From a virus, in the IMG/VR virus record IMGVR_UViG_3300032220_000699, positions 64,001 through 128,000 of that record: a stretch of DNA of 64,000 nucleotides; one strand, written 5' to 3'. This document shows positions 28,675 to 63,101 of the stretch, piece by piece. The notes beneath the pieces are model-generated. The model was not told where the DNA came from. It was given only the letters and a program-made list of their open reading frames with translations, and did not search any database. Position numbers and translations under genes: made by a program. Position 1 is the first letter of the stretch. Each line of letters starts with the position of its first letter.

Positions 28675-29157
28675 TTAAATCACAAAAGTTGCATTACCTT
28701 CATCGTCTAACTGTAACTCATAAATATCAACATCTACATACTTATTAGGTTTAGTGTAATCAATATTACCACGACGACGAAGATGCATGTCCAGCATATT
28801 ATCGTCATGAGTTCCTATTTCTAAATGATCAGGATTACAACAAGGAGGATTGTCACAAACTTTGTGTCGTACAATCATACCAGGAGGAATTTCAACACCT
28901 TCCGATAAAGTTTTAGCAACACGATGTGCTTTTAGATCATATTTGTTTCTACTTCCATCTGGGTTACGTTCTCCTTCAACCATGATGAGACCGTAACCAC
29001 GTTCAGACACACGCCCTTTCCATTCCCAGCAACGATTACCTTGCTGTATATCTACATTAGACCAGAAACGTTCTTTGTCATTTGCATCCATCTTATCAAG
29101 AATAGGAACTGTAACGTAGTGCGGGTCTTTTTCTTGGTTTTGTACTTCGTTTTGCAT
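28675..29157 (-). CDS. free-standing HNH endonuclease
   Basis: CWEWKG...GYG...AHRV...VRHKVCDNPPCCNPDHLEIGTHDDN: classic phage HNH. Confidence 0.85.
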   Translation of the reverse strand: MQNEVQNQEKDPHYVTVPILDKMDANDKERFWSNVDIQQGNRCWEWKGRVSERGYGLIMVEGERNPDGSRNKYDLKAHRVAKTLSEGVEIPPGMIVRHKVCDNPPCCNPDHLEIGTHDDNMLDMHLRRRGNIDYTKPNKYVDVDIYELQLDDEGNATFVI

Positions 29158-29241
29158 TTTATACTCCTTTTTGCGTTGTATCAAAAAGTTTAATAAAAAA
29201 TAAAAAAAAAGACGAGAGTAACCCCGTCTTTTTTGATTAGG

Positions 29242-33123: not shown

Positions 33124-33456
33124 CTAAGCACAATTCTTTTGTTCAGCTCGCCGCGCATTCAAGCGATCAGCCGTAGTGGTTGACTTGCGAGAATTAAGAC
33201 GGTTAGCCAAAGCGATCGGGTGAATACGATAAACACCCTTAGCGATGCGGCGAGTATATTTACGCCATGTCGGAGAATGTTCGCTGGTATCCATCTCAGC
33301 GTTACTGAGAAGAACACCGGTATAAGACTTCTTGATCTTCTCAAAAAAGTCCATAACTTCCTGACGAGTTACGATCAAACCTTTACCGATTTGACCATCA
33401 AGCATAGCATCCAGAAGCGAGTCATGAATGCTGCTAGTGACGTATGTTGCCATCAC
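33124..33456 (-). CDS. hypothetical protein inside the RNA operon
   Basis: 110 aa; GGAG RBS; lies between tRNA-Leu and the structured RNA. Confidence 0.7.
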   Translation of the reverse strand: MMATYVTSSIHDSLLDAMLDGQIGKGLIVTRQEVMDFFEKIKKSYTGVLLSNAEMDTSEHSPTWRKYTRRIAKGVYRIHPIALANRLNSRKSTTTADRLNARRAEQKNCA

Positions 33457-33511
33457 AGTCTCCTTAAAAGAGAGGGTTAAGATTTACTGCGGTTTATACG
33501 TGAAGAGTTAA

Positions 33512-33597
33512 TGGTGCCGGGAACGGGAATCGAACCCGTACACTCAATGAGCGAGAGATTTTAAGTCTCTTGTGTCTACCAATTTCACCACCCCGGC
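33512..33597 (-). tRNA. tRNA-Leu(TAA)
   Basis: Full cloverleaf with long variable arm, AGAGA-CTTAAAA-TCTCT anticodon arm, encoded CCA. Confidence 0.95.
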
Positions 33598-33646
33598 AAC
33601 TTTAAAACTCTTTAGTACAAATAATATATATGTTATTAAAAAAGTA

Positions 33647-34069
33647 TCAGCTGCAGATCTCTTCGTCAGCATCTGAAGCTAGTGATTTATAACCTTTGTA
33701 AGTAGGATGAATTTTATCCTTACTTAAATCAGACTTTCTAGGACTAATAGTAGTGTCTCTATATATACCAGCAACTTGCCTTACAAATTCATATTGTTCT
33801 GGTTTAATATCTTTATTGGGTAATATCCAAGTAACACATTTACTTCTAATTCCCATCCTTAACTTCAGAAGAGAGTTAAAAGTTGGTGTGACCTTTGTAT
33901 CATTTGTTCCCAAACTAATAATAGTATGTTTATTATATATGTTAACTGGTCCATATCTATTAACATAATTTTCCGAATTGATTCCAGATTGAACGTATGC
34001 TTGACATTCTTTTCTGACTTGTGAAATTCCTACACCAATGGAATCTCCAAGTATCAGGCATTCTAACAC
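33647..34069 (-). CDS. SGNH/GDSL-like hydrolase
   Basis: LILGDSIG (block I), SLGTND (block III), DKIHP (block V). Confidence 0.78.
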   Translation of the reverse strand: MLECLILGDSIGVGISQVRKECQAYVQSGINSENYVNRYGPVNIYNKHTIISLGTNDTKVTPTFNSLLKLRMGIRSKCVTWILPNKDIKPEQYEFVRQVAGIYRDTTISPRKSDLSKDKIHPTYKGYKSLASDADEEICS

Positions 34070-34090
34070 TGTTAACTCCTTGAGAAATGA

Positions 34091-34166
34091 TGGCCTCCCG
34101 TAGACGGTTCGAACGTCTGACCTGAATCTTAGAAGGATTCTGCTCTTCCAACTGAGCTAACGGGAG
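34091..34166 (-). tRNA. tRNA-Arg(TCT)
   Basis: CTCCCGT/ACGGGAG acceptor stem, GAATC-CTTCTAA-GATTC anticodon arm, TTCGAAC T-loop, CCA. Confidence 0.95.
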
Positions 34167-34621
34167 TTATTTTGAAACGGACTATTCTTACTAATTGTAT
34201 TATGAAATCTAGCAGAACAACTTCTAGAACAAAAAAGATGTTGAACACCCTTTCTAATTCTATTATTTATTTCACCTTGAGTTATATAAAATAAATTTCT
34301 ACAATTATCACATGGAACTATTGTCCATTGTACAACCATAGCGGAATACCACCATTGTTGTTTTAATAAATTCTGCTCTTGCGATAGCAATTGTAGATTA
34401 TTAATATCATCATTAGTTTTATCATCGTCCTTATGATCTACTTCAAAGTCATCAGGAACTTCATATCCAAGTTTAATACCCATAAGGTATCTAGCATAAG
34501 AAATAGTTGTTCTATCTGAATTTGAATTAAACAGATCAACTATTCTTCTATTTTCATTTGATATTCTTAAGTAACCTTTTTTCCATTTACTTCTAAAAGG
34601 TTCTTGTAATTCTATTAACAT
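34157..34621 (-). CDS. HNH endonuclease with C-terminal treble-clef Zn finger
   Basis: EVDHKDDDKTNDDINNLQLL HNH core; CDNC...FCSRSC; stop codon lies in tRNA-Arg nt 8-10. Confidence 0.85.
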   Translation of the reverse strand: MLIELQEPFRSKWKKGYLRISNENRRIVDLFNSNSDRTTISYARYLMGIKLGYEVPDDFEVDHKDDDKTNDDINNLQLLSQEQNLLKQQWWYSAMVVQWTIVPCDNCRNLFYITQGEINNRIRKGVQHLFCSRSCSARFHNTISKNSPFQNNSR

Positions 34622-34676
34622 GCTAATGCTCCAAAAGCTATTGACATGTATTATATATGTTATTGAATAAATCCCA

Positions 34677-34698
34677 TATCCAACTGAGCTATAGGCAC
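34677..34698 (-). pseudogene. orphan 5' fragment of a tRNA-Arg-like gene
   Basis: GTGCCTATAGCTCAGTTGGATA = acceptor 5' strand plus D-arm start; shares TAGCTCAGTTGGA with the downstream tRNA-Arg; no anticodon or T arm. Confidence 0.75.
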
Positions 34699-34737
34699 AC
34701 TTACTCTTTACAAACTATGTTGTTATCTAGTATTTTT

Positions 34738-34944
34738 TTAAAACCTTGGTGGCGGTGAAGGATACATAAACATAACAGAAAGATCCATCATAAATTCTCC
34801 AGGCGCGGGATTATCTACAATCTCAAATCCTGGATCTTTTTTCATTCCCTCAAAAAGTTTTTGAAGTTCAGGGTTACCACAGTTTAAAGAAGCTGATTCC
34901 AGATCACCCATATGTCCACGTGACACTCTGATTTTACCAGTCAT
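34738..34944 (-). CDS. hypothetical protein
   Basis: 68 aa; GGAG RBS. Confidence 0.6.
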   Translation of the reverse strand: MTGKIRVSRGHMGDLESASLNCGNPELQKLFEGMKKDPGFEIVDNPAPGEFMMDLSVMFMYPSPPPRF

Positions 34945-34957
34945 TTATTTTCTCCAG

Positions 34958-35467
34958 TTACTTATTGTGAGAAGTTTTATAGATCATATATTCTAGTTCA
35001 CCTCGGCCTATACGTAAATTATTTTTTGCTAATATTGGTACGTCTTTTCCTTCACCACCAATTTCTTCAAATGTGAAAGATTTAAATTCTTTTATTATTT
35101 CTATCTTTCCTTTTGTCAATGCCACTAAATCAATATAACCGATTCTAACCATTTCAATAGGTCTGATAAACCAATGCTCGTGATTTTTTCTAAAATCAGA
35201 CACAGCAGGTGGTAAGTAAGGTCTATCAGAAGTCATATAAATAGCCGGAGGATTCCAACCATTTTCTTCATTTCTGCATTCGATAATAATATCCATACTG
35301 TAAAGTTGTTTATTGCTAGAAATAGATCTTAAGCAATAAAGTAATTCTGGTGCAACACAAACTCTAGGTATATTACCTTCCTTATTTATGATAGCTGATT
35401 CAGGAAGTTTTGGTCTGAATTTAAAAACAGGACCGTGATCCTTTTTTGAAACATGGTAAAACAACAT
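34958..35467 (-). CDS. hypothetical protein, possible ADP-ribosyltransferase-like fold
   Basis: YHVS at the N-terminus and PRVCVA...CL resemble ART-fold phage proteins; weak inference. Confidence 0.45.
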   Translation of the reverse strand: MLFYHVSKKDHGPVFKFRPKLPESAIINKEGNIPRVCVAPELLYCLRSISSNKQLYSMDIIIECRNEENGWNPPAIYMTSDRPYLPPAVSDFRKNHEHWFIRPIEMVRIGYIDLVALTKGKIEIIKEFKSFTFEEIGGEGKDVPILAKNNLRIGRGELEYMIYKTSHNK

Positions 35468-59527: not shown

Positions 59528-59722
59528 TTAATTTTTAATGAGTCTATGGTGATGGAAGTCACAACAAACTACATTTGTGTCAGAACTAAAGTGTTCGATT
59601 AATTGATTATTCTTAAACCTAGTTTCTTTAATTAGTTCAAGAGTATTTAGCATTTGTTCTTCCATTTTATCCATTACTTCATTAAGCTTTATAAGATCTT
59701 TAAGCTCAACAGACATGATCAC
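59528..59722 (-). CDS. hypothetical protein
   Basis: 64 aa. Confidence 0.55.
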   Translation of the reverse strand: MIMSVELKDLIKLNEVMDKMEEQMLNTLELIKETRFKNNQLIEHFSSDTNVVCCDFHHHRLIKN

Positions 59723-61443
59723 TTGTCCTGTCTTAAAGCTATAACATGAGTATTCATAACTGACTTCATAACACCTTCAACGTCATTATAGTTGTAAGTA
59801 GATCTAAAGTTTTGTTTTGAATCTTCTATGAATCCACGTTGACTAATATAGTTAAATAGTTCAGGGAACATATTAAACAAAATATCAAATAACTGAGTGT
59901 AGATATAAGGATTAGTTTTTACTACCAATAGAAAATCTTTAAGAGAATTATCATCATCTATCATTCTGTAATGGTTAAGGATGTGAATAAAGACTCTAAA
60001 AAGATCATTCATTGTATCGAATATTCTACTAAATTCTGTTTTAAAGTTATCAAACGCATTCATCCATTCTTTAATAAATAAAAATAGAACAGGTTTATTA
60101 TTAAGTAAACGATCTAAGGCGCGTTTATCAAGCATTGTTATATCGACAATAATGCTTAATGTAACTCTAACTGGTTTAAACAAACTTAATTCATTAACAG
60201 ATTTAATAGTTAAGTTTTGATCTATTTCACCGTAAGCATCAAATAAAGCACCATCCTGATGTAGTCCAACATAAATGAACGACATATAAGGATGTTTAAT
60301 AAATTCATGTTCACCATCACTAATATAATTTAATAGAATATCAGGAATATAAAATGGGTCAATTTCTTTTAGATTTAGTAATGTCTTCTTATCTGTTTCA
60401 TCGACTTCAGTTAAGAATGATGCAAGAATAACATAACCTTTATGAGCTTGACGAAGATTAAAATCGTCGAACGCAGGAACATTAATAGGGTAGTTAATAT
60501 CGACTCTATTTTCTAATTGACGATGAGCTTCAAAATGACTTAAAGCATGAAGGCTCTGTGTATAACTTAAGTTACGCTTTCTTTCTTCAATAGAATTAAC
60601 CTTAGCATCTTCAATGAACTGTACATACTTAGCAGGTAAAAGCTTATTACAGATCATGACAGGATAACGGATACCTATAGCTCTAGGAACATCGAAAGAT
60701 AATTTATAACTGAAACTTACTTTATAGTTGGAGTTTTCATTATCAGCATCAACCTTCTCAGGCATGCTACTAAAATCAAAAAGACCAAGTATACGAACTT
60801 GTTTTTCAAAAATTGCGATCTTTGCATTTTCCTTGTTAGCCATGTCTGTAATCAGATGCATGCGCTTCGTAGAATGCTCTCTGAAATATTCCTCAAGAGA
60901 CTGAGGAACAAGTCTGTTCTTTAGTGTATGTACATCTGCAATAAATTCTTCAACGATATCAGGAAGAAGAATATCGTACTGGATATCATGGATACCAATG
61001 TTTCTGGTTTGGGATAAACGAATACGGATATCATCTCTTATTCTGTTAGCTTCTGTTTTAGAAGGAGTGAAGTAACTGAACTCAATCGTTATATCAGATT
61101 TAACATAAATAGGGAAAACAAAGACATCAATTTGTCTATCTTCAAAAATAGGGAAAGCGTTAACTTGATGAACAGCTGTTGTGGTCAGTTCATCTTCATT
61201 ATACTCTTCTATAATGTTTGCACTGATACGTCTTAATGACGCAGTTGAAGGAAGATTCTTCTTCTCAACTCCTGTTTCATTTGTTTTGTTATCAGTGAGT
61301 GTATAGTCAATATCCTTATGCACAGCAATAACAGCTGTATGTGGGATTTTTGTTGCTTCGACGATATCACCGATAATCTTAAAATAAGCTTCATTCAAGA
61401 TAGTACGGTTTGTATCCTCTAGGGTTAAGGAAACTGTAGGCAT
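59719..61443 (-). CDS. phiKZ-like virion structural protein
   Basis: From MPTVSL (AGGA RBS); YPVMICNKLLP segment; lies next to the head-protein genes. Confidence 0.62.
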   Translation of the reverse strand: MPTVSLTLEDTNRTILNEAYFKIIGDIVEATKIPHTAVIAVHKDIDYTLTDNKTNETGVEKKNLPSTASLRRISANIIEEYNEDELTTTAVHQVNAFPIFEDRQIDVFVFPIYVKSDITIEFSYFTPSKTEANRIRDDIRIRLSQTRNIGIHDIQYDILLPDIVEEFIADVHTLKNRLVPQSLEEYFREHSTKRMHLITDMANKENAKIAIFEKQVRILGLFDFSSMPEKVDADNENSNYKVSFSYKLSFDVPRAIGIRYPVMICNKLLPAKYVQFIEDAKVNSIEERKRNLSYTQSLHALSHFEAHRQLENRVDINYPINVPAFDDFNLRQAHKGYVILASFLTEVDETDKKTLLNLKEIDPFYIPDILLNYISDGEHEFIKHPYMSFIYVGLHQDGALFDAYGEIDQNLTIKSVNELSLFKPVRVTLSIIVDITMLDKRALDRLLNNKPVLFLFIKEWMNAFDNFKTEFSRIFDTMNDLFRVFIHILNHYRMIDDDNSLKDFLLVVKTNPYIYTQLFDILFNMFPELFNYISQRGFIEDSKQNFRSTYNYNDVEGVMKSVMNTHVIALRQDK

Positions 61444-61502
61444 TTGGAATTCCTTCTTATAGGTCAAAAAATGTCCGGAGGTTTCCCTCCGGACATCTTC
61501 TA

Positions 61503-63101
61503 TTAGAATTGCTTGGCACACTTATAGAGATACTTAATCATCTCATATCGACATTCTTGATGAATACCCATCAGTCCAACTGAAACTTCTTTCAAGAGAA
61601 CCTGGATAACATTAAGATAGTTAATAATAAATTTATGCAGATCTTCAAGTTTATCAATAACTTCTTTGCTATGTCTAGTCGGCTTATCGTTATTTCCACT
61701 ATTACCAAAATCTAATTCAGGTTCATCTAAATTAGGTCTTCTGGTAAATCCAGCGGCACCCAACATATCATTAGCCTGACTAGCTGAAATAGTGCTGGAA
61801 GATTCATCTTCATCTGTAGCCGTAACTGGGAAAGGATCGTCTTCCGTTGGCATTACATTTTCAGTAGCAATTGTAAAAGGATCACGAATAGTAGTTGTCA
61901 GTCTGTCAATTTCTTTGTCAAACTTTTCAACAGTTTTCTGAACTTGTTCAATTTTTACTGTTTTACTAAAGTCTTTATAGAAATCATAAAGACGCAAGAG
62001 ATTTTCACGAGAACTAATTGTTTCAAGATTATTCTCTGTGATATTATTTCTTTCTGAGTTAGATGTAATAAGCACCTTAGATGAATTGGATGTTTCACTA
62101 ACAGCAAAATCACACTTAACGTGATAAATATTAAAATCTCTGGGAAGCATTTGATTCGGATTTTTATCCGGGATCGCGCTGAAGAAAGAAGAACCCTTGA
62201 TTTCTGAAGAATCAAAAGCATTCATAATGTCATTCTGAACATCATCAGGCAGATTGTTAAAATGAACAGAATTTGTAAATAAAGTTTGGAAAGTGTCAGC
62301 AAGTCTATGTCTGATATTATCAACATCAGACGCTGTTAAAACAACACTCTTGTCTTTAAGCTTAGAAATAAGACTGTTCATCTCGGCAGTAAAACCAGGA
62401 TGAAAGTTTTTATCAATTTCACCAGTAAAGACTTTAATAAATGTTGAAAGATTAGAAAGCTTCTGTTTACCTTTAGTAATCAGATAATCAGATCTCATCG
62501 TTTCAATATCAGGTGTGCCTAACAAGCTCGGGAGCTTAGAGTCAACCTTAATTTGTGTAACTGAATTTTTATCGCTACGCTTAACTTTATGCATTAAGTC
62601 TTCGATATACATTTCATACTCTTCCATCTGAAGATTAGCATTAACTAATCTCTTAAAGAAAAGCATAACACGTTTAAAGAAGTCCTTAAAGAAGGATTTA
62701 ATCTTTTCCCAAATAGACCGCATGAATTCCATAAAACCTTCCATGGCGATCTTATGTGAAGTTTCAACACCATAAGGATTCTTGAAATCTTCCATAGAAG
62801 GAATTTTAGCTCTTACACCAAGATTGTTAGCAACACTCTTCATGTATAATGAATAATTCTCCATAGACGTGAAGTATTCAACGCTAGAGAGCTTTTTAGA
62901 TTCAATTGATGCCTTGACATCCCTAAGGATATAAAGCTCGTTAGAAGCTCTTGCAACACCTTCCACAGCTACCTGAATAGCATCTTCATGAAATTCAACG
63001 ATATCAGGAATATCACTGTTTTCAATCTTTGCTTCAATAAGCTTTTCGGGAGCTGAAGGCTGCTCTATATCTAGTTCTTCACTTGCGAATAACTTTGCCA
63101 T
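61503..63101 (-). CDS. internal head protein, phiKZ paralog family
   Basis: Propeptide with many S/A-x-E motifs (AVE, SIE, SVE, SME, AME) then AMEGFMEFMRSIWEKIKSFFKDFFKRV amphipathic helix. Confidence 0.78.
   Translation of the reverse strand: MAKLFASEELDIEQPSAPEKLIEAKIENSDIPDIVEFHEDAIQVAVEGVARASNELYILRDVKASIESKKLSSVEYFTSMENYSLYMKSVANNLGVRAKIPSMEDFKNPYGVETSHKIAMEGFMEFMRSIWEKIKSFFKDFFKRVMLFFKRLVNANLQMEEYEMYIEDLMHKVKRSDKNSVTQIKVDSKLPSLLGTPDIETMRSDYLITKGKQKLSNLSTFIKVFTGEIDKNFHPGFTAEMNSLISKLKDKSVVLTASDVDNIRHRLADTFQTLFTNSVHFNNLPDDVQNDIMNAFDSSEIKGSSFFSAIPDKNPNQMLPRDFNIYHVKCDFAVSETSNSSKVLITSNSERNNITENNLETISSRENLLRLYDFYKDFSKTVKIEQVQKTVEKFDKEIDRLTTTIRDPFTIATENVMPTEDDPFPVTATDEDESSSTISASQANDMLGAAGFTRRPNLDEPELDFGNSGNNDKPTRHSKEVIDKLEDLHKFIINYLNVIQVLLKEVSVGLMGIHQECRYEMIKYLYKCAKQF

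Follow-up and report, generated by a model that had tools for sequence, protein, structure and literature searches.

How a nuclease gene came to stand between a fragment of one tRNA gene and a complete copy of another is the question raised by a locus on the minus strand of a phage genome. The gene, here called HNH1, is preceded by the first nucleotides of a tRNA-Arg gene and runs into a whole tRNA-Arg gene at its 3' end. The stretch of DNA that we analyzed, referred to below as the window, comprises 64,000 nucleotides and corresponds to bases 64001-128000 of a 189,134-bp IMG/VR record with an estimated completeness of 94%.

All seven RNA genes of the whole genome (one tmRNA and six tRNAs) are located within the window on its minus strand. 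The tRNA-Arg(TCT) at 34166-34091 is the sole Arg gene among the six tRNA genes, and the tmRNA encoded by the phage lies 1.5 kb from the locus. The source is a large phage without close cultured kin, since the matches of its 600-aa virion-associated protein (59719-61521, minus strand) are distant, the best of them reaching 44.6% identity. These matches, 153 in phage records, belong mostly to large (200-320 kb) phages of Pseudomonas, Erwinia, Serratia, and Ralstonia, with Bacillus phage AgentSmith as the top match.

Anatomy of the cassette

The original prediction had distinguished four parts at this locus (a tRNA stub, a promoter, an HNH gene, and a tRNA-Arg), and all four are present at the minus-strand coordinates given here. 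Reading along the minus strand, the cassette begins with a tRNA stub of 22 nt (34698-34677) that corresponds to nt 1-21/22 of a former tRNA-Arg and holds its acceptor 5' strand, nt 8-9, the 5' strand of the D-stem, and the D-loop. A 55-nt spacer follows, within which a promoter-like motif of 12 nt (34660-34649) lies 27 nt upstream of the HNH1 start codon. The HNH1 ORF itself (34621-34157, 154 aa; Pfam HNH_3 and zf-FCS, phrog_14913) is the only ORF of the cassette. The last part is a complete tRNA-Arg(TCT) with an encoded CCA end (34166-34091), recognized by ARAGORN, by Rfam RF00005, and by its cloverleaf fold. The ORF and the tRNA overlap by 10 nt (34166-34157), as read from the sequence: tRNA nt 1-10 serve as the final three sense codons of HNH1 and its TAG stop, the stop being tRNA nt 8-10.

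An altered target next to the nuclease gene is a trait of free-standing homing endonucleases such as SegB, SegF, SegG, and MobE, and here a truncated tRNA-Arg is found 55 nt upstream of the ORF and a divergent tRNA-Arg allele abuts it. Two other kinds of element were considered and rejected. An integrase-borne island in a tRNA gene does not fit, as the sole ORF is the HNH gene and it is the 5' part of a tRNA, not the 3' part, that is present twice. A group I intron in a tRNA gene does not fit either: no intron family was detected by an Rfam E-value scan of 33400-35000, the downstream tRNA is whole, and the acceptor strand of the stub is unpaired with its 3' end.

Between the tRNA-Arg and the neighboring tRNA-Leu lies an ORF of 140 aa (33647-34069, minus strand) with no match in Pfam or PHROG. 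A homologue in another viral contig (L011) is found inside a cluster of 21 tRNA genes, with tRNA-Met and tRNA-Lys on either side.

The HNH1 endonuclease

HNH1 matches the Pfam family HNH_3 (PF13392) with 39.1 bits against a cut-off of 24.8, the zf-FCS family, and phrog_14913, annotated as 'HNH endonuclease', with an E-value of 2.6e-38. These matches divide the protein into a nuclease domain of the HNH_3 (I-HmuI-like) kind at the N terminus and a zinc finger with four cysteines at the C terminus. In comparisons of 33 homologues and of 23 sequences, residues D62, H63, N75, and N84 are invariant, as are the cysteines C104, C107, C131, and C135, and HNH1 conserves the catalytic His and Asn of the beta-beta-alpha-metal motif. 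A confident AlphaFold model of HNH1 (pLDDT 90) had I-HmuI (1u3e) as its top Foldseek match in the PDB, with a probability of 1.00 but an E-value of 2.9e-3 and a low TM-score of 0.34 over the whole two-domain model. A profile search of PDB sequences with HNH1 returned only chance zinc-finger matches and did not find I-HmuI. From its domains and conserved residues, HNH1 is predicted to be an HNH_3 (I-HmuI-like) endonuclease of the His-Me finger type.

The protein is a short form, without the helix-turn-helix tail found in relatives of ~188 aa; roughly half of the proteins closely related to it have this additional C-terminal helix-turn-helix. HNH1 and its 22 closest homologues fall into two length classes, both represented among the nearest relatives: forms of ~150 aa terminate in or at a tRNA, and forms of ~188 aa add the C-terminal helix-turn-helix (Pfam HTH_7 in some). 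The three closest proteins (P0001-P0003) are 100%, 79%, and 75% identical to HNH1. In the 79%-identical homologue, the C-terminal residues are nearly the same as those encoded here by the acceptor strand of the tRNA, which may be taken as a weak hint that the HNH gene and the tRNA travel together.

Identity of the tRNA stub

Within the window, the 22-mer of the stub has two matches with at most three mismatches, against 0.01 expected. Outside its own record, the exact 22-mer occurs 28 times over the viral and prokaryote collections: once in IMG/VR, at the start of an intact 77-nt tRNA-Arg(TCT) on a phage contig of 147 kb (L096), and 27 times in prokaryotes (one genome each of ~185,000 species). 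Three of the 28 matches are cut by contig ends and were excluded from the isotype count. According to ARAGORN, the complete genes that start with the 22-mer are tRNA-Arg in 25 of 25 cases (TCT 10, CCG 5, CCT 5, GCG 4, and TCG 1), with no tRNA-Ile2, tRNA-Ile, or tRNA-Met among these 25.

The stub also has an A at position 20, the main arginine identity base of E. coli ArgRS. Because all complete exact matches are tRNA-Arg and position 20 is A, we identify the stub, by sequence comparison, as the opening 21-22 nt of a tRNA-Arg gene. Which anticodon that gene had is not readable from 22 nt, as the same 22-mer starts TCT, CCG, CCT, GCG, and TCG genes. The breakpoint follows 34677. It is placed where the D-loop meets the D-stem, since at this point the intact gene goes on with G and the stub with T.

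The original prediction had called the stub a remnant of tRNA-Arg and had named a 5' end like that of tRNA-Ile2 as the source that would contradict this. The first statement is borne out by the 25 complete genes, all Arg and none Ile2 or Met, and with the same zero count the second source fails. In this alternative, the stub would have arisen by an unrelated partial duplication of another of the phage's own tRNA genes, such as the tRNA(CAT) gene (48681-48605), which begins with a sequence that agrees with the stub at 20 of 22 positions. We consider this extremely improbable: one of the two mismatches falls at identity position 20, where the stub has A and the tRNA(CAT) of the window has T, and none of the complete exact matches in the ~185,000 prokaryote genomes and IMG/VR is a tRNA-Met or tRNA-Ile.

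The resident tRNA-Arg(TCT) is a different allele

The complete tRNA at the end of the cassette scores 48.8 bits with the Rfam tRNA model RF00005, against a gathering threshold of 29, and is called Arg(TCT) by ARAGORN. Its minimum free energy structure is a clean cloverleaf of -24.4 kcal/mol with a fully paired acceptor stem, in which the first pair is an unusual C1-G72.

The stub and the resident tRNA have 13 nt in common (tRNA nt 8-20), and their 7-nt acceptor strands are identical at three of seven positions. When the resident gene is aligned with the intact gene of L096, the loops and the anticodon are common to both, and the acceptor, anticodon, and T stems differ, each on both strands. 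In addition, the D-loop of the resident tRNA is one base shorter than that of the stub's type, exactly at the breakpoint. Since it departs from the stub's type in each of the variable stems, three in number, and by a single base at the breakpoint, the resident gene is identified by the alignment as a different allele, being neither the old 3' part of the stub nor a mended version of the old gene. It had been claimed from the two acceptor strands that the stub could not be the 5' end of the present tRNA; this holds for every variable stem, all of which differ on both strands and pair perfectly within the resident tRNA.

The resident allele was not found elsewhere in IMG/VR when exact matches to a 25-mer and a 17-mer of its 5' end were sought. 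For this reason, the case for HNH1 travelling together with this allele is built on analogy and on the C-terminal residues of the 79%-identical homologue.

A second cassette and a shared promoter motif

A second cassette with the same order of parts is found in the window, also on the minus strand. It begins with a 29-nt stub of the 5' part of a class II tRNA (59502-59474), whose break falls where the anticodon stem begins. The HNH2 gene (59413-58928, 161 aa) encodes a paralogue of HNH1 with 40% identity and has its promoter motif at 59451-59440, 26 nt upstream of its start. A complete tRNA-Ser(TGA) (58926-58839) begins 1 nt past the HNH2 stop. The single best match of the stub in our tRNA classifier, a crude one, is a tRNA-Ser.

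The motif shared by the two cassettes, ACATATATANTA, occurs with at most one mismatch in 20 copies in the window, against 2.8 expected, all on the coding (minus) strand and spanning positions 2203 to 59451. It precedes several genes and RNA genes, including the tRNA-Leu (copy 33633-33622) and both HNH genes, at 27 nt before the start codon of HNH1 and 26 nt before that of HNH2; one copy (33942-33931) is internal to the 140-aa ORF. A scan with the sigma-70 consensus gave no promoter-like site at the motif position, and a sigma-70 promoter for HNH1 was rejected. Judging its function from recurrence only, the 12-nt motif is probably a promoter for the phage's own transcription apparatus. As both HNH genes carry this phage-type motif, it suggests an origin of the cassettes in phages of the same kind, or an adaptation to them.

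A third ORF with an HNH_3 domain (28675-29184, minus strand, 169 aa) belongs to a different subfamily and has no tRNA gene adjoining it.

Recurrence of the layout across the HNH family

HNH1 has hundreds of relatives. From IMG/VR, JGI metagenomes, and GenBank phages, we kept 98 non-redundant loci with E < 1e-10 and both domains covered; 94 of them had enough downstream DNA and 91 had upstream DNA for analysis. A tRNA gene on the same strand starts between -50 and +25 nt of the stop codon in 39 of 94 loci (41%), compared with 8 of 193 (4%) for the control ORFs, which were the remaining ORFs of these loci with a length of 100 aa or more. The stop codon coincides with tRNA nt 8-10 in nine loci, so that the -10 overlap of the first cassette recurs in eight others.

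Upstream of the HNH gene, 5' stubs of tRNA genes were detected in 24 of 91 loci and in 1 of 91 control windows by a scan of the 170 nt before the start, with complete tRNAs masked and a score of at least 16. The layout of stub, HNH gene, and tRNA is thus general in the family and not confined to this window.

Many family members stand between tRNAs of unlike isotypes, which counts against the explanation favored below. In a quick tree of 43 enzymes with a downstream tRNA, the tRNA isotype changes 20 times, compared with a mean of 25.8 after shuffling, and none of 500 shuffles gave 20 changes or fewer.

The frequency of stubs in the family would fit a working role for the stub, be it in RNA processing, as a hairpin, or as a left homology arm on which further homing could land, as would the 13 nt that it has in common with real tRNAs and that are intact although the stub is unable to form a tRNA. 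We nevertheless regard such a role as very unlikely, since the length of the stub and of the spacer varies between loci and the stub region does not fold convincingly (z 0.13 in the first cassette, no better than shuffled sequence, and a weak -1.55 in the second); a functional hairpin was rejected on the folding result. Service as a homology arm would in any case be compatible with the explanation that we favor below and is not a rival to it.

The nearest relatives of HNH1 provide a closer comparison. In the tree, HNH1 pairs with the enzyme of the metagenome contig JACCDR010541242.1 (L132; SH-aLRT 89) and adjoins L126 and L128 (the latter being contig WBZR01115580.1); all four genes precede a tRNA-Arg(TCT). 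L132 has an Arg-type stub broken at nt 22, and the stub of L128 is broken at about nt 19. The sequence of the L128 stub is of the same allele type as the resident tRNA-Arg(TCT) of L132. Because of this match, the pair suggests, at the level of sequence, that cassettes overwrite each other's tRNA alleles serially.

Probable overwriting of a tRNA-Arg allele by a homing cassette

Taken together, these results make it likely that the first cassette is a free-standing homing endonuclease unit, made of a promoter, the HNH gene, and its own tRNA-Arg(TCT), which overwrote a different, host-like allele of tRNA-Arg. We base this explanation on what the sequences show, namely the order of the parts, a stub of Arg identity, a resident tRNA of another allele, and the recurrence in the family, together with the I-HmuI-like nuclease, the second cassette, and the precedent of the phage endonuclease SegB.

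We infer the following mechanism, including the cleavage and its position, the resistance of the resident allele, and the direction in which the cassette moved. During co-infection with a phage that has no cassette, the HNH enzyme would nick or cut the tRNA-Arg gene of that phage at or close to the D-loop (nt 19-22). Repair of the break from the cassette-bearing genome would then copy in the nuclease gene and the linked tRNA allele, which is presumably uncut by the enzyme. The target gene would be destroyed, with its first 21-22 nt left behind, and the carrier would keep a working tRNA with the same anticodon. The overwriting may have taken place in the lineage of this phage, or the stub may have been imported with the cassette from a related donor; the data are compatible with both.

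The overlap of ORF and tRNA would have a further consequence. The last 10 nt of the ORF lie within the tRNA, so that RNase P, in maturing the 5' end of the tRNA, would strip the stop codon from the nuclease mRNA; this loss would probably keep the level of the nuclease low.

The main rival to this explanation is that the resident tRNA is native. The stub would then come from a neighboring upstream tRNA-Arg, perhaps another isoacceptor, and the HNH gene alone would have been inserted, deleting the 3' two thirds of the upstream gene and replacing nothing. Phage tRNA genes do stand head to tail, and a complete tRNA, often of another isotype, ends at most 70 nt before the HNH start in 36 of 91 loci; in L020, for example, the order is a complete tRNA-Met(CAT), the HNH gene, and a tRNA-Arg(TCT). 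It is also in keeping with a native gene that the 22-mer of the stub is common to five Arg isoacceptor types and that the resident allele was found nowhere else. However, the isotypes of stub and downstream tRNA agree in 10 of 22 loci, compared with 4.3 expected (permutation p = 0.002), a rough figure, as each stub was classified by its best match among 348 tRNAs with its own locus excluded, a reference both small and biased. In each of the two cassettes of this phage, the stub and the complete tRNA are for the same amino acid, and the six tRNA genes of the phage include no second Arg gene. Allele replacement would, moreover, predict a likeness such as that of the L128 stub to the tRNA type resident in L132. 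On balance, we consider a native resident tRNA unlikely.

The same comparisons lend support to the original prediction that the whole tRNA arrived with the HNH gene, with the break in the D-loop. As seen from sequence, the HNH genes of L132, L128, and L126 each precede a tRNA-Arg(TCT), the Arg-type stubs of L132 and L128 break at nt 19-22, the agreement of isotypes in the family is above chance, and the L128 stub resembles the L132 resident.

Relation to known systems

Homing endonucleases usually spare their carrier by residing in self-splicing introns, inteins, or intergenic DNA. The cassette described here appears to break a useful gene and to pay with a spare of the same isotype, which would be a third route to harmlessness. 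Homing by overwriting would also explain the stray tRNA fragments, the odd alleles (a C1 start and altered D-arms), and the rapid turnover seen in phage tRNA clusters, and it points to a family of enzymes of about 150-190 aa whose candidate targets lie in conserved sequences of tRNA genes.

The gene for I-HmuI resides in a group I intron within a protein-coding gene, and the enzyme nicks a single strand. HNH1 resembles it (PDB 1u3e; PMC5714182) in belonging to the same Pfam family (HNH_3, His-Me finger group 2), in its conserved catalytic residues, and in having it as the top fold match. Unlike in I-HmuI, there is no intron here, the proposed target is a tRNA gene, and function would be kept by a spare gene instead of by splicing.

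As described in PMC2330249, SegB of phages T4 and T6 is a free-standing GIY-YIG endonuclease encoded in a tRNA cluster, which cuts the tRNA genes of phages that do not carry it, recognizes a conserved T-loop motif, and drives the preferential inheritance of its own tRNA region. In the same paper, cleavage of the segB transcript between the last and the stop codon is proposed to occur during maturation of tRNA-Arg. SegB homologues are statistically associated with tRNA genes across phages, according to PMC13096335. Like SegB, the HNH1 cassette places a free-standing nuclease gene in phage tRNA surroundings, with tRNA genes as the proposed target. Unlike SegB, with its GIY-YIG domain and T-loop motif, HNH1 combines an HNH_3 domain with a zinc finger, and the site indicated by the stubs is the D-loop or the anticodon stem. 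Pfam gives HNH_3 and zf-FCS only and no GIY-YIG domain in HNH1, which by its domains is an analogue of SegB and not a member of the SegB family. The SegB passages of PMC2330249 and PMC13096335 contain no description of a stub combined with a spare of the same isotype.

The homing endonucleases of phage T5 are likewise encoded in a phage tRNA cluster, where processing of the tRNA transcript is proposed to lower their expression (cited in PMC2330249 and PMC5714182); one of them, F-TflIV, is listed among the His-Me finger (HNH) nucleases in PMC5714182. The T5 enzymes are absent from the 38 phage records that match HNH1 at E <= 1e-5, and for this reason we do not count them, on sequence grounds, among its close relatives. 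Phage homing endonucleases that target tRNA genes are already known from SegB and the T5 enzymes, and the stub-plus-spare layout of the HNH_3 family is a recurring variant of known homing endonucleases. In the literature searched, we found no description of a stub plus a spare of the same isotype for an HNH_3 family, a result that does not prove its absence.

Integrative elements that target tRNA genes rely on an integrase, and it is the 3' end of the tRNA that they duplicate, leaving partial copies at attL and attR. As in these elements, a mobile element lands in a tRNA gene, the copy that it carries restores function, and a partial duplicate remains. The cassette differs from them in being without an integrase, in leaving the 5' end behind, and in supplying a whole, divergent tRNA.

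Synthetic cleave-and-rescue drives link a nuclease to a recoded, uncuttable copy of its own target. The proposed cassette follows the same logic, and would be a natural counterpart of these engineered drives. It differs from them as a natural viral element with a probably dispensable tRNA target, the resistance of whose spare is presumed. In its strongest form, a natural cleave-and-rescue drive would have the nuclease destroy the common, host-like tRNA-Arg(UCU) of rival phages and install a recoded allele. Cassettes would overwrite each other serially, as suggested by the L132 and L128 pair, and the altered stems and D-loop would let the tRNA escape tRNA-cleaving defence nucleases of the host. 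Removal of the stop codon by RNase P, together with tmRNA tagging, would set the dosage of the nuclease. We regard this full set of proposals as unlikely; if true, it would mean that a selfish element spreads an anti-defence trait.

Intact genes elsewhere and cultured phages with the layout

Relatives carrying an intact tRNA-Arg of the stub's type at this locus had been proposed as a check of the explanation. One intact gene of this type is present elsewhere, on the L096 contig, and none was found at this locus: a search of IMG/VR via the flanking proteins gave no HNH-free sister phage with an intact gene. The surroundings of the tRNA-Arg(TCT) on L096 have no protein similarity to this genome and no shared neighbors. 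Neither the flanking ORF of 169 aa nor the 600-aa virion protein has syntenic relatives in IMG/VR, and the 140-aa ORF recurs there at four loci with 45-52% identity and no other gene in common.

AgentSmith, the nearest cultured relative, has a tRNA-Lys and a tRNA-Arg(TCT) and is without this HNH gene. It was rejected as an empty site, since it carries a different type of Arg allele and is too remote a relative.

The layout is also present in cultured phages. In Xanthomonas phage LucasX, a Thr-like stub and an HNH gene are followed by a tRNA-Thr 2 nt past the stop codon, and in Acinetobacter phage vB_AbaM_14/CRR8 (PV611675.1) the HNH gene abuts a tRNA-Phe. In the latter locus (L013), a tRNA-like sequence at 1315-1415, just upstream of the HNH gene, has a paired acceptor, a T-arm, and a CCA end. 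It is called neither by ARAGORN nor by the annotation of the record, and may be an aberrant or decayed tRNA.
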